Positions 26,367 to 31,654 of a stretch of 32,000 bases of DNA are shown here, piece by piece. The first letter of the stretch is position 1, and each line of letters opens with the position of its first letter. The stretch is from an uncultured Opitutales bacterium (GTDB taxonomy: Bacteria > Verrucomicrobiota > Verrucomicrobiia > Opitutales > Intestinicryptomonadaceae). The notes under the pieces are model-generated. The model was given only the letters and a program-made list of their open reading frames with translations. It ran no database searches and had not been told where the DNA came from. A program made the translations under genes and the position numbers. The stretch covers positions 150,001 through 182,000 of the forward strand of contig CAKUIA010000002.1 in NCBI GenBank assembly GCA_934660865.1, read 5' to 3'.

Positions 26367-27368
26367 CTAGTTGAAAAACTTTTCGGCTTCAAAGCGCGAA
26401 ATGTTGCGCATATTAACATAGCGGCTTTTTAAAAGCATTTGGTTGCTGTGCCCCATATTTAGCTGCAGACGCGGCAGGTCTTTAAAGCGCTTGGCAAAAA
26501 AGCTGGCAAACGTGTGCCTAAGCACATCGGCTTGCCACGGCAATGCGTTGCGGCTAAAACCGCTGCTTTGCCTTATGTTTTGCCAACGGCGCTCCCAGTT
26601 TTTTGGGCATATTTTGCCCGAACCTATTGTTTTGCTTAAAATGCGCTTTAGCTGCGGCATAATTTCCACTTGGCGCACCCCGCCTGTTTTAGAACACAGC
26701 GAGCGCACAGTTATTGTGTTTTCCTGCAAATCAATATCTTGCCAAGTTAGCCGCCTAACTTCGCGCGGGCGTATTCCCGCATATATCAAAAGGGCAACGG
26801 CTGGCAGGCAAATGCCACCGCACTCGCTTTTTGCAACTTCTATAAGCCGCCTTATTTGGCTTAGTTTTAGCGGCAAAATTTCCTTTTCAATAACGCGCCG
26901 TTTTTCGATGTGCTTTATGGGGTTTTTGTCGCACCAGTTGTAGCGCACTGCAAATTCAAATAGGGCGTGCAGCATACTCCTTGCCTTGTTTTGCTGGCTT
27001 GGTGTGCTAAAGGCGCAGCTTAGCCACGCTTCGCATTCCGACACACTAAGTTGCGAAAAATTGCGATTGGCAAGTTCGGAGTTGGCTTTAATCAGCCTAT
27101 TGCCTATGCAGCGAATGTCTCGCAAAGAGTCTTTGCGCAAGTGCTTTTTGCTTTCGTAATAAATTGCAAAACCCCGGTTAAAAGGCATTTCGTTTGCCCT
27201 TATGTTGCGAAGGCCAACTTCAATAACTTTTAAAACAAATTGCGCGTCGGTTAAATTGCAGTTTTTGGGCTTCGCGTCTAAAATATTTCTGACAAATCTT
27301 GCCGCGTCTAACGCAGAAACATTTGCACCGTTTAACACCTCTTTTATCAATAGTTCCATTTTGTCCAT
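26367..27368 (-). CDS. Tyrosine site-specific recombinase (phage-integrase family)
   Basis: SAM-like N-domain (ARSMLHALFEFAVRYNWCDKNPI). Catalytic region: AGIRPREV (Arg I), VLRHTFASF (Arg II; the usual His three residues before it is Asp here), MGHSN (His) and SRYVNM (Tyr nucleophile). Confidence 0.85.
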   Translation of the reverse strand: MDKMELLIKEVLNGANVSALDAARFVRNILDAKPKNCNLTDAQFVLKVIEVGLRNIRANEMPFNRGFAIYYESKKHLRKDSLRDIRCIGNRLIKANSELANRNFSQLSVSECEAWLSCAFSTPSQQNKARSMLHALFEFAVRYNWCDKNPIKHIEKRRVIEKEILPLKLSQIRRLIEVAKSECGGICLPAVALLIYAGIRPREVRRLTWQDIDLQENTITVRSLCSKTGGVRQVEIMPQLKRILSKTIGSGKICPKNWERRWQNIRQSSGFSRNALPWQADVLRHTFASFFAKRFKDLPRLQLNMGHSNQMLLKSRYVNMRNISRFEAEKFFN

Positions 27369-27384
27369 CGTATTTAAAATACGA
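27368..27384. repeat. Site L: perfect 17-bp palindrome TCGTATTTAAAATACGA, a candidate recombinase core site or operator
   Basis: Read directly from the sequence. Its left edge overlaps the recombinase start codon (CAT at 27366-27368). 27367-27382 is the exact reverse complement of 27545-27560. Confidence 0.6.
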
Positions 27385-27538
27385 ATGTCAAATATAAATT
27401 CAAAAGATTGTTTGAATTATTTGCATAAAATAACTTACGCAAAATCAGCTGAACGGTTGGAACAGATTTTAAAACAATTTCTTTGCAACGCAAAATATAT
27501 AATATTGTGTTTTTCAAAAGCTTGCAACAAAGCAAATG

Positions 27539-27563
27539 CCTATAGTATTTTAAATACGATAGG
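27539..27563. repeat. Site R: 25-bp palindrome CCTATAGTATTTTAAATACGATAGG (11 of 12 pairs), partner of site L
   Basis: Read directly from the sequence. It lies 23 nt upstream of the ATG at 27586. Its 7-bp A/T core TTTTAAA is the reverse complement of the site L core TTTAAAA. Confidence 0.6.
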
Positions 27564-27585
27564 CTTCCCTTAAATTTTAATCGTA

Positions 27586-28350
27586 ATGACGTATGGCGTT
27601 TTTTTAGAGGAAGTGAATTCTATGCTTTCAAAATTTCCCGAAAGCAAGTTGCTTGTCCCCACATTGGGAGGGAGATCTTTGTTCTTGATTTATGTGGAAA
27701 ATGGCAAGTTAAAGATAGTAAATTCGAAAGGCAAAACATACGCTTTCACCGATAAGGAATACAATGCCATACAAAAGCGGTTTGTAGAATCGCCCGCTTT
27801 TGTCGCATTTAAAACTTGCAACTATACAAAAACAACAAATGCGGGGTGTATCGGCTGGACAACCCAAAACGGCAATAAAAATTGGATTTATTGGGGTTAT
27901 TTGCCCGCTGTATTTCGCGAATTATATGCGCGCAATGAAATGTGCATAGGCAATTCTTATTTATACAACTCCCCCGATATGCGCTCGTATACGGCTGTTG
28001 AGTGGAAAGACTTTCTCTCCTACATAAAAATTAGAGATATAATAAGCTCTATCTCGTATAACGATATTAATTTCGACAAAAAAGTTGAACTTTCGTCTTT
28101 TTTAAACGCCAAAAAAAAGGTTTGTGATTTTTTTGTAGGCAATAATTGGGGCATACATTGTGTCCTTTGGAGCAATATTGCAGACACCGTTGAGGACGAA
28201 ACTTTGCGCTATATAGTTTTAATTATTTTAAAATGGCTTAGGAAAGAAATCATTAAGTGTTTTAAAAAATGGAAAGACAAAAAAGGAAAAAATAAGTACC
28301 CGCGCCGCAACTGCAACAAATGCCCGCGCAACAAAAATTATAAACATTAA
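27586..28350 (+). CDS. Hypothetical protein, 254 aa, no recognised domain, Lys/Arg-rich C-terminal tail
   Basis: Long ORF in a very AT-rich region with no signal peptide. The tail is ...KKWKDKKGKNKYPRRNCNKCPRNKNYKH. Its stop lies 12 nt upstream of the next ATG. An alternative start at 27622 is preceded by GAGGA. Confidence 0.6.
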   Translation: MTYGVFLEEVNSMLSKFPESKLLVPTLGGRSLFLIYVENGKLKIVNSKGKTYAFTDKEYNAIQKRFVESPAFVAFKTCNYTKTTNAGCIGWTTQNGNKNWIYWGYLPAVFRELYARNEMCIGNSYLYNSPDMRSYTAVEWKDFLSYIKIRDIISSISYNDINFDKKVELSSFLNAKKKVCDFFVGNNWGIHCVLWSNIADTVEDETLRYIVLIILKWLRKEIIKCFKKWKDKKGKNKYPRRNCNKCPRNKNYKH

Positions 28351-28362
28351 AATTTTGTATTT

Positions 28363-30837
28363 ATGAAAAAATATATATTAACATTATCTTTCTTGGCGGC
28401 AGGAGTAATCTTTGCCGACAACGACATTCATACCGGCGAACTTAGCGGAAACTATTCGGGGGCTAGCCACGTTGATTCCGTTTGGGAAAATACCTACGTT
28501 AAAGATGGAGAAAAGGTTATTTTTTCAACTCCCATAAAAAAAACAGACTATACTCGTGCAAATTTTGCAGACGCGAATCTAACCTCAGCGGCTTTTGATG
28601 GCGCAACATTGACAAATACAGATTTTACTAATGCAAACCTTTCCTCTGTGTCTTTTGGAGATGCAGTACTAAGAAATGCAAATTTTACAAGGGCAAATCT
28701 AACCTCGGCATCCTTTTTTTATGTATTAATGGATGAAGATAATGACATAGAACGTGGTGCGACATTGGAGAATGCGAATTTCACAGATGCGATAGTCAAA
28801 AAGACCGATTTTTCGATGACCGTATCATGCGGATTTACAGAAGCACAGTTGAAATCCACGAAGAGCTATAAAGAAAAAGATTTAAGTGAAATATCTCTTG
28901 GTAATAACGATTTGAGTGGATGGGATTTTAGTGAACAGAATCTAACCTCGGCGGGGTTTTGGTGGTCAACATTGACAAATGCGAATTTTGCGGGGGCGAA
29001 TCTAACCTCGGCGAGTTTTTCCGGTTCATTGACAAATGCGAATTTTACGAATGCTACAATTAAAGATGCAGGCTTTTCTGGTACTGTATCACATGGATTT
29101 ACAGAAGCGCAGTTGAAATCCACGAAGAGCTATAAAGAAAAAGATTTAAGTGGAATATCTCTTGGTAGTAACGATTTAAGTGGATGGGATTTTAATGAAC
29201 AGAATTTAACCTCGGCGGAGTTTGCCGGTTCAACATTGACAAATACGAATTTTACGAATGCTACAGTTAAAGAGGTTAATTTTATTGGGACCGTATCATG
29301 CGGATTTACAGAAGCACAGTTGAAATCCACGAAGAGCTATAAAGAAAAAGATTTAGGTGGAATACATCTTGATAGTAACGATTTAAGTGAGTGGGATTTT
29401 AGCGGTCAGAACCTAACCTCGGCGGGGTTTGAATTTGCGACATTGACAAACGCGAATTTTGCGGGGGCGAATTTAACCTCGGTGAATTTTTTCTCTTCAA
29501 CATTGACAAATGCGAATTTTACGGGTGCTACGATTAAAGGCGCACGCTTTCAGCATGCTGTATCACGCGGATTTACGGAATCGCAGTTGAAATCCACGAA
29601 GAGCTATAAAGAAAAAGATTTAAGTGGAATAGATCTTAGCAGTAGCGATTTGAGTGGATGGGATTTTAATGAACAGAATTTAACCTCGGCGAGTTTTTGC
29701 TTTTCAACATTGACAAATGCGAATTTTGCGGGGGCGAATTTAACCTCGGTGAATTTCGTAGATACGATAGTCAAAAAGGCCGATTTTTCGATGACTGTAT
29801 CACGCGGATTTACAGAAGCGCAGTTGAAATCCACGAAGAGCTATAAAGAAAAAGATTTAAGTGGAATAGATCTTAGCAATAGCGATTTGAGTGGATGGGA
29901 TTTTAATGAACAGAATTTAACCTCGGCGAGTTTTTGCTTTTCAACATTGACAAATGCGAATTTTGCGGGGGCGAATTTAACCTCGGTGAATTTCGTAGAT
30001 ACGATAGTCAAAAAGGCCGATTTTTCGATGACTGTATCACGCGGATTTACAGAAGCGCAGTTGAAAACCACAACGAGCTATAAAGAAAAAGATTTAAGTG
30101 GAATAAATCTTAGTAGTAACGATTTGAGCGGATGGGATTTTAGTGAACAGAATCTAACCTCGGCGAATTTTTACGATACCACATTGACGAACGCGGATTT
30201 TACTAGCACAGACCTGCGCGGGGCTACACTTACCAACATAGACGGCACGCCGATTTACAAAAACACCATTATGACAGACGGTGTCATAAAAAACTTTTCG
30301 ATAACTTCGGCGGCAGATAACCTTACAATTCACAAATACACACCTGCAACTAGCGGCGGAGAAATTATTAGCGCAAAAGTTTCCGAAAGCCACGCAACGG
30401 TTTCGGGAGGAGCAACACTTAAGTTAGATACAGGAGCGCAACTAGATATTGTAAACAAAAAGATGCTTATCATAGCCCAAGACGGCGCGCTTATTATTGA
30501 CACCTCTATAAGCGATCCAACGCAAATTTATGTAGAATCTTTGGCGGGATTATTGGTTATAGGCAGCAATTTTACCGTAAACATAACCGAAAGTCTTTTA
30601 GACAACGTTGAATACAAGTTCGACTTAATTTCGTTTGAAGACGGCGCTAATATAGACATTCCCGAAGAATGTGTATCGCTTACCGTAATGGGCGAAACTT
30701 TTAACGGAACTTGGAGTTGTGTTAAGGGCGAAAACACATTCAGCATAATTGCAACGCAAGTTCCGGAGCCCGCAACTGTTGCCGCAATCTTCGGCGCGCT
30801 TGCGTTGGCATTGGCGGTTTACAAACGCAAAAAATAA
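28363..30837 (+). CDS. Secreted pentapeptide-repeat protein with a C-terminal PEP-CTERM sorting domain
   Basis: Signal peptide MKKYILTLSFLAAGVIFA|DN. Long runs of A(N/D)LxS/F-type pentapeptides (ANFADANLTSAAFDGATLTNTDFTNANLSS...). A beta-rich C-terminal region is followed by VPEPATVAAIFGALALALAVYKRKK (30760-30834), which has the PEP motif, a TM helix and a basic tail. Confidence 0.85.
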   Translation: MKKYILTLSFLAAGVIFADNDIHTGELSGNYSGASHVDSVWENTYVKDGEKVIFSTPIKKTDYTRANFADANLTSAAFDGATLTNTDFTNANLSSVSFGDAVLRNANFTRANLTSASFFYVLMDEDNDIERGATLENANFTDAIVKKTDFSMTVSCGFTEAQLKSTKSYKEKDLSEISLGNNDLSGWDFSEQNLTSAGFWWSTLTNANFAGANLTSASFSGSLTNANFTNATIKDAGFSGTVSHGFTEAQLKSTKSYKEKDLSGISLGSNDLSGWDFNEQNLTSAEFAGSTLTNTNFTNATVKEVNFIGTVSCGFTEAQLKSTKSYKEKDLGGIHLDSNDLSEWDFSGQNLTSAGFEFATLTNANFAGANLTSVNFFSSTLTNANFTGATIKGARFQHAVSRGFTESQLKSTKSYKEKDLSGIDLSSSDLSGWDFNEQNLTSASFCFSTLTNANFAGANLTSVNFVDTIVKKADFSMTVSRGFTEAQLKSTKSYKEKDLSGIDLSNSDLSGWDFNEQNLTSASFCFSTLTNANFAGANLTSVNFVDTIVKKADFSMTVSRGFTEAQLKTTTSYKEKDLSGINLSSNDLSGWDFSEQNLTSANFYDTTLTNADFTSTDLRGATLTNIDGTPIYKNTIMTDGVIKNFSITSAADNLTIHKYTPATSGGEIISAKVSESHATVSGGATLKLDTGAQLDIVNKKMLIIAQDGALIIDTSISDPTQIYVESLAGLLVIGSNFTVNITESLLDNVEYKFDLISFEDGANIDIPEECVSLTVMGETFNGTWSCVKGENTFSIIATQVPEPATVAAIFGALALALAVYKRKK
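28831..30165 (+). repeat. Six in-frame coding modules sharing a conserved anchor (GFTEAQLKSTKSYKEKDLSGI.L.SNDLSGWDF.EQNLTSA)
   Basis: The anchor GGATTTAC(A/G)GAA... begins at 28831, 29095, 29302, 29569, 29806 and 30043. The spacings are 264, 207, 267, 237 and 237 nt, all multiples of 3. Confidence 0.9.
29584..30057 (+). repeat. Near-perfect tandem duplication, 2 x 237 bp
   Basis: By direct comparison, 29584-29820 and 29821-30057 differ at a single base (G at 29642 against A at 29879, Ser to Asn). Confidence 0.92.
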
Positions 30838-30856: not shown

Positions 30857-31654
30857 ATGCCAAAAAGCTACAAAGTGTTTGTTATAAATCTCGACAGGTC
30901 GGCTGACCGCTGGGAGAACATGCACACGCAGCTTGATAAGCTTGGCCTGCCCTACGAACGCTTTGCCGCAATAGACGGCAAGAAGTGTTCCGACGCCTTT
31001 TTGGGCGGTTATTATTCGGCATTTTTAAACAAAAAGCGCTATTTTGCAGACTTAAGCCGCGGCGAAATTGCCTGCTACATTAGCCACTTAAAAGTGTGCC
31101 AAAAAATTGTAGATTTAAATCTCGACTACGGCATTGTTTTGGAAGACGACATCGAATTAAGCCCCCTTTTTTATGCGGTTCCCTTTGCATTAAATGCAAT
31201 TAAGCGCAAATGGAGCTACATTAAATTGATTGCGCCTTTTAAGCCGAAAAAAGTACGTTCGCGCACGCCGTTTGCGGTAGAAATTCCCGCAACTTGCACA
31301 ACCGAAAAGTTCGACGGCAAAACACCGCAAAAAAGCGAAAAACAAATTTTGGCCCCCTTTGTTTTTGAATTGGTAAGTTGGAACAAGCCGCCATGCGGCA
31401 CGCAGGCCTACGCCATAACAAAAGAGGGCGCAAAAGAATTTTTGGCAAAACGCTCGCGTTTTTTCCGCCCCATAGATGTAGACTTGCAATATACTTGGGA
31501 AACTTTGCTAACCATAGAGGGCCTATGCCCGTTTTTATGCAAAATTAAGGAACAACATTCCGAAATTGCACGCGCAAAAAAATACCACTACCCCTTTGCA
31601 CGCTTAATTTACAAAATTAGGCGCGCAATTTGTAAAAAGCACAACGCCGCGTAA
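30857..31654 (+). CDS. Glycosyltransferase family 25 (LPS/LOS beta-1,4-galactosyltransferase-like)
   Basis: The N-terminus KVFVINLDRSADRWENM...L...GL.YERF.AIDG and GEIACYISHLK....I......GIVLEDDIEL are typical of GT25. Confidence 0.8.
   Translation: MPKSYKVFVINLDRSADRWENMHTQLDKLGLPYERFAAIDGKKCSDAFLGGYYSAFLNKKRYFADLSRGEIACYISHLKVCQKIVDLNLDYGIVLEDDIELSPLFYAVPFALNAIKRKWSYIKLIAPFKPKKVRSRTPFAVEIPATCTTEKFDGKTPQKSEKQILAPFVFELVSWNKPPCGTQAYAITKEGAKEFLAKRSRFFRPIDVDLQYTWETLLTIEGLCPFLCKIKEQHSEIARAKKYHYPFARLIYKIRRAICKKHNAA

Follow-up and report, generated by a model that had tools for sequence, protein, structure and literature searches.

In a 32,000-nucleotide stretch of an uncultured Opitutales genome (phylum Verrucomicrobiota; contig CAKUIA010000002.1, positions 150,001 to 182,000), referred to here as the window, the short region that separates a tyrosine recombinase gene from a divergent surface-protein operon appears to be an invertible regulatory switch driven by that recombinase, a reading to which we attach a probability of about 0.8. 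That the locus is an inversion switch of some kind seems almost certain. The inverted repeats that bound the segment, natural inversion at orthologous and related loci, the covariation of the two repeats throughout a family of such loci, and an asymmetry of the segment accompanied by a bias in its orientation are all directly observed. The hosts, uncultured Opitutales, are represented mainly by human gut metagenome assemblies, Hadza included. Related loci are designated by L numbers, and positions without such a prefix are those of the window. The elements on which the argument turns are the following:

26367 to 27368, minus strand, tyrosine recombinase gene, the presumed invertase, 333 amino acids (aa), PF00589
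27367 to 27382, recombinase-proximal inverted repeat, 16 nt, with its 13-bp core GTATTTAAAATAC at 27370-27382
27545 to 27560, cargo-proximal inverted repeat, 16 nt, with its core GTATTTTAAATAC at 27545-27557
27383 to 27544, invertible interior, 162 bp, the entire regulatory region of the two divergent genes
27368 to 27384, site L, TCGTATTTAAAATACGA, a 17-bp palindrome with 8-bp arms and a central A
27539 to 27563, site R, CCTATAGTATTTTAAATACGATAGG, a 25-bp palindrome with one mismatched pair

A preliminary description of this DNA, made from the sequence alone, had delineated sites L and R and a number of motifs between them, and all of its coordinates and sequences for these proved right when re-checked, including TATAAT at 27498-27503, ACGCAAAAT at 27437 and 27488, and TTGCAAC at 27483 and 27522. 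Site L overlaps the start codon of the recombinase gene (CAT, 27366-27368, minus strand), whereas the end of site R is separated by 22 nt from the first ATG of the operon (27586), which we call the cargo; measured from the cores, the recombinase ATG lies 1 base from the inner one and the operon start 28 nt from the other. The 16/16 inverted match between 27367-27382 and 27545-27560 was recovered independently by a repeat finder and is the longest perfect inverted repeat in the region 27200-27750, where the maximum across 300 dinucleotide shuffles was 13 nt; the sequence GTATTNNNAATAC occurs just twice in the 32 kb, at the two sites, with 0.02 occurrences expected. By both of these measures, the inverted repeat exceeds the chance expectation. 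Each site is a copy of GTATT-NNN-AATAC, and an exact match between the two is obtained in the inverted alignment alone. The earlier contention that they are inverted rather than direct repeats does not hold firmly for the window taken by itself, where only one central base and one arm base favor it, and where the two sites compared as 23-mers match at 19 of 23 positions in either orientation; it is the related loci that bear it out.

The inversion of a segment of ~160 bp, which had been predicted from the repeats, is supported by natural variants. Two metagenome contigs from different samples, L015 and L016, encode an identical recombinase protein and, over 7002 bp, differ by one single-nucleotide polymorphism and by the exact reverse complement of a 161-bp interior, the limits of the invertible unit being the 16-nt repeats. 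The window stands in a comparable relation to L004, its ortholog from a Hadza metagenome-assembled genome (MAG), with a 91% identical recombinase, the same GH28 and porin neighbors and the same two repeats, the interior of which is in the opposite, reverse-complement orientation. A further case is provided by L104 and L105, in one orientation, and L106, in the other, with a single mismatch; all three of these loci share a homolog of the first cargo protein of the window, an orphan (P0125). The Logan contig L003 was rejected as evidence of a flip because its end lies 13 nt inside the segment rather than at the edge of the core.

The generality of this arrangement became apparent from the recombinase relatives, which number more than 1300 in the protein collection, the best 120 of these all being at least 62% identical to the window protein; 80 further loci were fetched from gut metagenomes. 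One MAG carries at least four full-length copies of the recombinase gene plus two partial matches (residues 240-333 alone). An unbiased repeat search recovered an inverted pair directly upstream of the recombinase gene in nearly all loci with sufficient sequence; the same layout is found in ~75 related loci, in all of which the inner core ends exactly one base ahead of the recombinase ATG. The family consensus of the repeat is (AT)[C/G]GTATT-NNN-AATAC[G/C](AT), and the length of the interior ranges from 140 to 176 bp.

It is in the central triplet of the core that the two sites of each locus most clearly behave as a pair. In a non-redundant set of 65 loci, each having its partner core at a distance of 110-220 bp, the triplets are inverse-identical in 64, direct-identical in none, and neither in one (L070). 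The triplet itself takes 14 values (reading inward, TAA, AAG, TAG, CAG, GAG, GAT, ACA, ATA, TAT, CGG, AAA, TGA, CAT and ACG), and this covariation is the behavior that would be expected of the crossover sites of a tyrosine recombinase, unlike that of operators. The sole exception, at a core near position 3987 of L070, has the triplets TGT and GCA, one base off, and may be a decaying or locked switch. The interiors, in turn, have diverged into ~35 sequence groups, and in all-against-all clustering both orientations were found in the group of the window alone. Calling the orientation of each locus by alignment to the window interior failed for most loci, whose interiors are too diverged, and for this reason a conserved TTGACA block, described below, was adopted as the orientation marker.

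The recombinase itself is a clear member of PF00589 (51.2 bits, with a cutoff of 27.1), and its closest relative among solved structures is XerA (5hxy; E 2.7e-10). The residues R200, K227, R284, H307 and Y317 are invariant in 27 homologs. D281 (window ~26526-26528, minus strand) is likewise invariant, an aspartate in 27 of 27 sequences at the position of the usual histidine of H-x-x-R (DVLRH, compared with HVLRH in XerA). The protein is not recognizable as a Xer equivalog, with a best NCBIfam score of 56.7 bits against a cutoff of 220 and scores below every NCBIfam equivalog cutoff; it carries ~90 residues N-terminal of the Xer-like match, and, whereas Xer resolvases are single copy and act at dif, here multiple copies occur in one MAG, each beside its own pair of repeats. 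No full-length similarity to FimB or FimE was detected, the hhalign probability being 34% over 58 columns and the BLASTP match covering 33 residues (E 2e-4); the similarity, at the level of the superfamily, is confined to one stretch of ~33-58 residues around box I. The AlphaFold2 model of the recombinase is poor (predicted local distance difference test score, pLDDT, 60; predicted template modeling score, pTM, 0.37) because the underlying alignment contains close relatives alone. On the strength of its sequence and its constant association with the repeats, we consider it very probable that the adjacent recombinase performs the flip.

The interior is far from symmetric, and the regulatory meaning of its two ends has to be read from the following elements, the promoter assignments being putative throughout:

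27383 to 27432, minus strand, module A, in which an A/T-rich tract leads into TTGACA (27391..27386) at a distance of 3 nt from the repeat core, facing the recombinase in the window
27522 to 27551, plus strand, module B, a candidate promoter toward the operon consisting of TTGCAA (27522-27527), an 18-nt spacer, and TATTTT (27546-27551) in the cargo-side repeat
27376 to 27402, minus strand, a promoter-like pair consisting of TTGAAT (27402..27397), a 16-nt spacer, and TATTTT (27381..27376) in the repeat, score 7.4
27499 to 27527, minus strand, sigma-70-like TTGCAA-N17-TATTAT, toward the recombinase in the window orientation, score 10.8
27560 to 27565, plus strand, the -10-like TAGGCT in the fixed cargo flank, which after inversion would lie 18 nt downstream of TTGACA as part of a candidate split promoter

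Module A is the more conserved of the two ends. In the window, its hexamer reads TGTCAA at 27386-27391 on the plus strand and is preceded by the A/T-rich tract (…TTCCAAAGTATTTTAGATTTTT…); across the family, 96% of the 47 distinct versions of module A have TT[GA] starting at position -9 relative to the core, the anchored consensus is TTGACA, and the linker between TTGACA and the core is 3 nt long in 55 of 57 cases. In 84 of 88 loci, the window included, it is the recombinase that module A adjoins, and in four (L004, L015, L090 and L092) it is the cargo; in L106, too, module A is on the cargo side. Of the 56 distinct versions of the opposite end, module B, 84% have a TT[GA] (TTG or TTA) at position -23 or -22 relative to the core. 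This puts it 17-18 nt ahead of a TATTNT that the core itself supplies, T being the central base of the outward-read core in 48 of 61 loci. The same outward reading on the other side places the recombinase ATG 8 nt past the hexamer, and, in the window, the arrangement TTGAAT-N16-TATTTT-N7-ATG would put the start of transcription on the A of the recombinase ATG and yield a leaderless mRNA. The TTGCAA at 27522-27527 is self-complementary and lies at a -35 distance both ways, from TATTTT at 27546-27551 on the plus strand and from TATTAT at 27504-27499 on the minus strand; the -10 of the latter pair is unconserved in other subgroups. The TATAAT at 27498-27503, to which the preliminary description had drawn attention, was discarded as a promoter -10 because it lacks a -35 partner, and sigma-54 and Bacteroidetes-type motifs, judged by eye, fit the conserved block poorly.

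On neither side does the DNA beyond the segment leave space for a promoter, and the cargo ATGs typically lie 15-60 nt past the core, often without a Shine-Dalgarno sequence; many are 15-24 nt past the repeat and lack one, which is consistent with a start site just upstream. We scored -10 elements in the flanks, with the linker and core taken as a 16-18-nt spacer beyond TTGACA. Hexamers with A2 and T6 at offset 0 or 2 past the core are present in 69% of 58 cargo flanks, compared with ~10% at control offsets (Mann-Whitney p 7e-16). The mean best -10 score was 2.2 in the cargo outer flank, -1.6 at control offsets in the same flanks, -1.1 in the inner flank of the same site, which has the same palindromic arm, and -4.0 in the recombinase flank (xATGxx), where none reached 2. 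An inverton without an adjacent recombinase gene (L004:9861-10027) follows the same pattern, with TTGACA-N16-TATATA toward its gene formed only when the segment is flipped.

Taken together, these patterns suggest a mechanism in which catalysis by this particular recombinase, the promoter assignments and the identity of the ON state are what we infer. The adjacent tyrosine recombinase would bind both GTATT-NNN-AATAC sites through their palindromic arms of ~8-11 bp, and strand exchange within the short asymmetric center would flip the 162-bp segment 27383-27544. TTGACA would serve as a -35 element that, when facing the operon, pairs across the 13-bp repeat (a 16-18-nt spacer) with the -10-like TAGGCT of the fixed flank (27560-27565), turning the operon strongly ON. 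In the window orientation, TTGACA would face the recombinase start codon, where there is no -10, and the operon would be OFF or low. The recombinase would be read as a leaderless mRNA from a promoter with its -10 within the repeat, and because of this placement of the -10, its expression would depend on the state of the switch. It is plausible that, as the preliminary description had envisaged, a promoter within the segment drives the operon or the recombinase gene depending on the orientation; that a split promoter exists and that the window captures the OFF or low state is a proposal toward which the flank patterns incline us with little more than even confidence.

Several observations weigh against this reading, in whole or in part. 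A search for a flipped copy in the window's own strain was unsuccessful, exact-protein look-ups returning the same orientation alone, and neither was heterogeneity seen there at the level of reads; the 84:4 skew in assembled consensus sequences could mean that flipping is rare or that some copies are locked, as could, for individual copies, the mismatched core of L070 and the truncation of the recombinase gene at some loci. The aspartate in the place of the usual His-II (D281) sits awkwardly with the putative recombinase activity. With regard to the promoters, a sigma-70 scan of 27200-27750 gave one match, TTGCAA-N17-TATTAT, no more than in shuffles; TAGGCT is weak as a -10; the xATA of the cargo flanks is partly due to the palindromic outer arm; both genes have plausible promoters in the window orientation that use the TATTTT of the repeat as a -10; and all of the promoter calls are based on patterns, in a group with poorly characterized promoter rules.

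The alternatives to a switch fare worse as explanations of the locus. Both orientations in public contigs could reflect assembly artefacts at the inverted repeat, given that repeats can cause misjoins in metagenome assemblies and that many of the related recombinase contigs are short, but the 16-nt repeats are below the usual k-mer lengths of de Bruijn assemblers (the MEGAHIT-style 'k141_' names suggest a final k of 141), every contig traverses flank, repeat, interior, repeat and flank, such that reads must span the junctions, and flips recur across different samples, assemblers and loci. Because the repeats are shorter than the k-mers and the contigs read across both junctions, L015, L016 and L104 to L106 are not misassemblies, and we reject this explanation. 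The caveat attached to the preliminary description, that the palindromes are operators of a dimeric regulator looping between sites 175 bp apart, with the recombinase unrelated, has in its favor the near-palindromic form of the window sites and their position flanking both start regions. Operators, however, explain neither the 64/65 covariation nor the observed flips: the centers in the paralogs are non-palindromic (TAG, CAG, AAG, GAT and others) and covary as inverse-identical triplets, the segment is physically present in both orientations, and the motif occurs as pairs beside a recombinase gene, plus one lone pair, rather than as scattered single operators. We accordingly reject the operator-pair alternative as exceedingly improbable. 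More substance attaches to the idea that the repeats are chiefly junctions of a mobile or cassette-capturing module, or of cargo swapping, with inversion a by-product. The window and L017 are 98% identical over 1580 bp, and this homology breaks off precisely where the cargo-side core has its outer edge (window 27557/27558; L017:422), beyond which their cargo is unrelated; among 97 locus pairs with similar interiors, homology is lost 0-21 nt from the core in 68, in 65 of them within 7 nt, while 29 of the 97 have common cargo. L050 and L051 combine identical interiors with different triplets, recombinase 5' ends and cargo. Pairs with interiors 97-100% identical but with triplets that differ in both cores comprise L050 and L051 (ACA and TAA), L068 or L076 and L097 (AAG and AAA), and L038 and L086 (AAG and TAG), and it would seem that cores and interiors have been reassorted, or else that the two cores are altered together at a higher rate than the interior. 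These junctions suggest that the sites may also mediate exchange between modules. Nevertheless, the recombinase side keeps its chromosomal context (GH28, porin) in the window, L004 and L016, the interior alone is inverted repeatedly, and it bears conserved asymmetric blocks that resemble promoters; cargo swapping is, moreover, compatible with the function of a switch and no substitute for switching, which leaves the cassette explanation improbable as an account of what the repeats are chiefly for.

A different question is whether, granted that inversion is real, the common orientation, which is also that of the window, is instead the one in which the operon is ON, or whether the switch sets levels alone; we regard this as possible but rather unlikely. 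Under this scenario, the operon would be driven by TTGCAA (27522-27527), with its 18-nt spacer and the TATTTT in the repeat, and the TTGACA block would be not a -35 but an accessory or arm-type site for the N-terminal region of the recombinase or for a host factor, making the two sites unequal and biasing the direction of the flip, like the half-sites that flank fimS. Such a scenario accommodates the placement of TT[GA] in 84% of module B sequences, which, at -23 or -22 relative to the cargo-side core, is the right distance from TATTNT; the outward central T in 48 of 61 loci, which supplies T6 of the hexamer; the ~90 extra N-terminal residues of the recombinase; and the copies with truncated recombinases, which are possibly locked in the common orientation with their cargo intact. 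Because module B and the repeat hexamer could drive the operon at present, the switch may set levels rather than toggle between ON and OFF, or its common state may be ON. The 84:4 skew would then mean that the cargo is mostly ON in the gut, as is reported for the Akkermansia cps1 inverton (PMC13343947). Conversely, TTGACA is a perfect sigma-70 -35 that follows an A/T-rich tract and by far exceeds the TTGnnn of module B in conservation; the -10-like enrichment is found exactly 16-18 nt beyond TTGACA and in the cargo flank alone; and the recombinase-less inverton of L004 has, at present, no -35 at -23 facing its gene. In surface-protein families with many switches per genome, a mostly OFF state is the usual one, and one Opitutales MAG carries at least four full-length recombinase copies plus the two partial matches.

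A broader interpretation, which we put forward tentatively and rate as well short of even odds, is that gut Opitutales harbor a large, undescribed family of self-contained modules, each comprising a recombinase and its switch, that combine four properties. The 13-bp core would double as promoter DNA, serving both as the spacer of a split promoter and as the -10 of a leaderless mRNA, such that recombinase synthesis flips together with the switch; the variable triplet, the same in both sites, would confer identity on each module; the cargo-side core would be a junction for the exchange of cargo between modules; and the cargo would extend to small TIR-like, Mrr-like and P-loop proteins, that is, to phase-variable defense-like genes.

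Invertible promoters that are flipped by neighboring tyrosine recombinases are classical. In the mrp/MrpI system of Proteus mirabilis and the fimS/FimB-FimE system of Escherichia coli, the promoter of a surface-structure operon lies on a short invertible element of ~250-314 bp; mrpI is divergent from its operon, with the element in between, as is the recombinase gene in the window, and fimE exerts orientational control over the output of recombinase. Unlike these systems, the window contains no fimbrial genes, its repeat overlaps the recombinase start, many paralogous modules exist, and its recombinase, of 333 aa with an N-terminal extension, is considerably larger than FimB and FimE, of ~200 aa. 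The mpl family of Mycoplasma penetrans, in which promoter cassettes of ~135 bp with ~12-bp repeats each precede one surface-protein gene and yield combinatorial ON/OFF patterns, resembles the Opitutales loci in its many short cassettes, one per member of a surface-protein family, but differs in that one or two recombinases are common to all cassettes, the cargo consists of lipoproteins rather than PEP-CTERM proteins, and the repeats are unrelated. The lox, FRT and dif sites share with the present ones the inverted arms around a short asymmetric center that gives polarity; in those systems, the centers of two partner sites have to be identical, and the spacer variants lox511 and lox2272 are mutually incompatible; here, by contrast, the variable part is just 3 nt within a partly symmetric TT-NNN-AA. 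In Bacteroides, the promoters, which conform to the TAnnTTTG type, are contained entirely within the invertible element.

The closest counterparts are the invertons of Akkermansia, a member of the same phylum, in which both orientations are seen in gut samples and which occur in many copies per genome. The inverted-repeat motif of A. muciniphila, CGGATT..AATCCG, is quoted from Jiang et al. 2019; 'inverton group 138' has 32 copies in ATCC BAA-835, is enriched beside PEP-CTERM genes, and was not linked by proximity to any invertase group (PMC11892184). The likeness, which is one of published description rather than of alignment, extends to the shape of the repeats (CG-G/T-ATT ... AAT-C/A-CG), the arms GTATT in Opitutales (CGTATT-NNN-AATACG) and GGATT in Akkermansia being one base apart; to their size, 16 nt around 162 bp in the window and 16-17 nt around ~158 bp in the published example 2092093-2092109-2092267-2092283; and to the neighborhood, both kinds adjoining PEP-CTERM and other surface-protein genes. 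The differences are that every Opitutales switch but one has its own recombinase, the start codon of which overlaps the repeat, whereas the Akkermansia group was linked to no invertase group by proximity; that the central triplet in Opitutales varies from one paralogous switch to another; and that the Opitutales module appears to be exchangeable. In Bacteroides fragilis, the recombinase BF2766/Tsr19 lies beside an invertible promoter and acts on IVp-I and IVp-II, including a distant site (PMC4747536). This is again a gut commensal with surface or extracellular products, and the action at a distance recalls the lone inverton of L004; the phylum and the inverted-repeat motifs, set apart here by their descriptions, differ. 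Because its sites have the same shape and size as those of Akkermansia, we place the Opitutales switch within the known kind of invertons, of which it is a new example; no paper in the searched literature mentions both Opitutales and invertible elements, and DeepInverton makes no mention of Verrucomicrobiota.

If the proposed reading is correct, gut Opitutales vary the phase of PEP-CTERM proteins, of enzymes that modify lipopolysaccharide (LPS) and of some defense-like genes by means of many separate switches, a bet-hedging strategy such as that of Bacteroides and Akkermansia. The literature examined names no invertase for the Akkermansia invertons; because each Opitutales switch carries its own recombinase, the family offers a candidate enzyme class, together with a minimal substrate of ~190 bp, for the invertons of Verrucomicrobiota. 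The variable triplet and the overlap between site and promoter suggest orthogonal sets of switches and split promoters, and GTATT-NNN-AATAC followed by N-ATG provides a simple key for finding Opitutales switches in metagenomes.

A few members of the family depart from the standard layout. The lone inverton at L004:9861-10027 consists of the inverted pair GTATTTATAATAC and GTATTATAAATAC around a 141-bp interior, without an adjacent recombinase gene, and lies between the end of a porin gene and a gene for a 471-aa protein with a signal-peptide-like start, its TTGACA block at present facing away from that gene; it has the core triplet of the L007 switch of the same MAG, which suggests that it may be acted upon in trans. 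In L098, L099, L100 and L102 (for example, L098:1935-2276 and 746-1813), just 113 aa of the recombinase are left; similarity to the intact copy in L101 ends near position 2024, and a 355-aa PEP-CTERM gene comes next; these copies retain the switch and the cargo, in the common orientation, and are possibly locked or served by a paralog. L005 and L006, ~250 kb apart on contig CAKTSY010000001, differ in their cargo, although they share their 19-nt repeats (core TAG), resemble each other in the interior and are nearly identical at the 5' end of the recombinase gene; both are in the same chromosomal orientation, such that recombination between the copies would delete 250 kb.

The genes downstream of the switch in the window are the following:

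27586 to 28350, plus strand, first cargo gene, encoding a 254-aa orphan
28363 to 30837, plus strand, second cargo gene, encoding an 824-aa pentapeptide-repeat surface protein with a PEP-CTERM anchor (PF00805, 9.9e-60)
30857 to 31654, plus strand, GT25 glycosyltransferase of LPS or lipooligosaccharide (PF01755, 2e-34)

The orphan has no match in Pfam, NCBIfam or PADLOC, its 10 homologs are all unnamed, and its AlphaFold2 model (pLDDT 72.9) has no fold match in the PDB. The GT25 gene probably belongs to the switched operon, and in L002 it is followed by more glycosyltransferases. The operon of the window is typical of the family, in which a variable small protein, apparently cytoplasmic, most commonly precedes a large PEP-CTERM protein; other cargo includes giant secreted proteins, GT25, WavE and an acyltransferase. 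The small first genes belong to many unrelated families, among them DUF6979 and small P-loop proteins (150-160 aa), and include weak CAP12/Pycsar-TIR matches (E 2e-4 to 5e-3) and an Mrr-like nuclease domain (PADLOC PDC-S02). The defense-like or P-loop first genes, each usually with a gene for a large PEP-CTERM protein behind it, are located as follows:

L004:4841-5788
L085:2949-3776
L049:2831-3796
L053:2291-3319
L007:5311-5766

Given how weak these matches are, phase-variable defense-like cargo is a possibility at which they hint rather than a finding.

The PEP-CTERM gene of the window contains, at 29558-30201, a tandem repeat with a 237-bp (79-aa) unit in 2.7 copies with 94% identity. In L001 and L002, where the recombinase and the orphan are identical to those of the window, the protein has 745 aa rather than 824 and lacks one tandem unit, so that this surface protein varies also by the copy number of its repeat.

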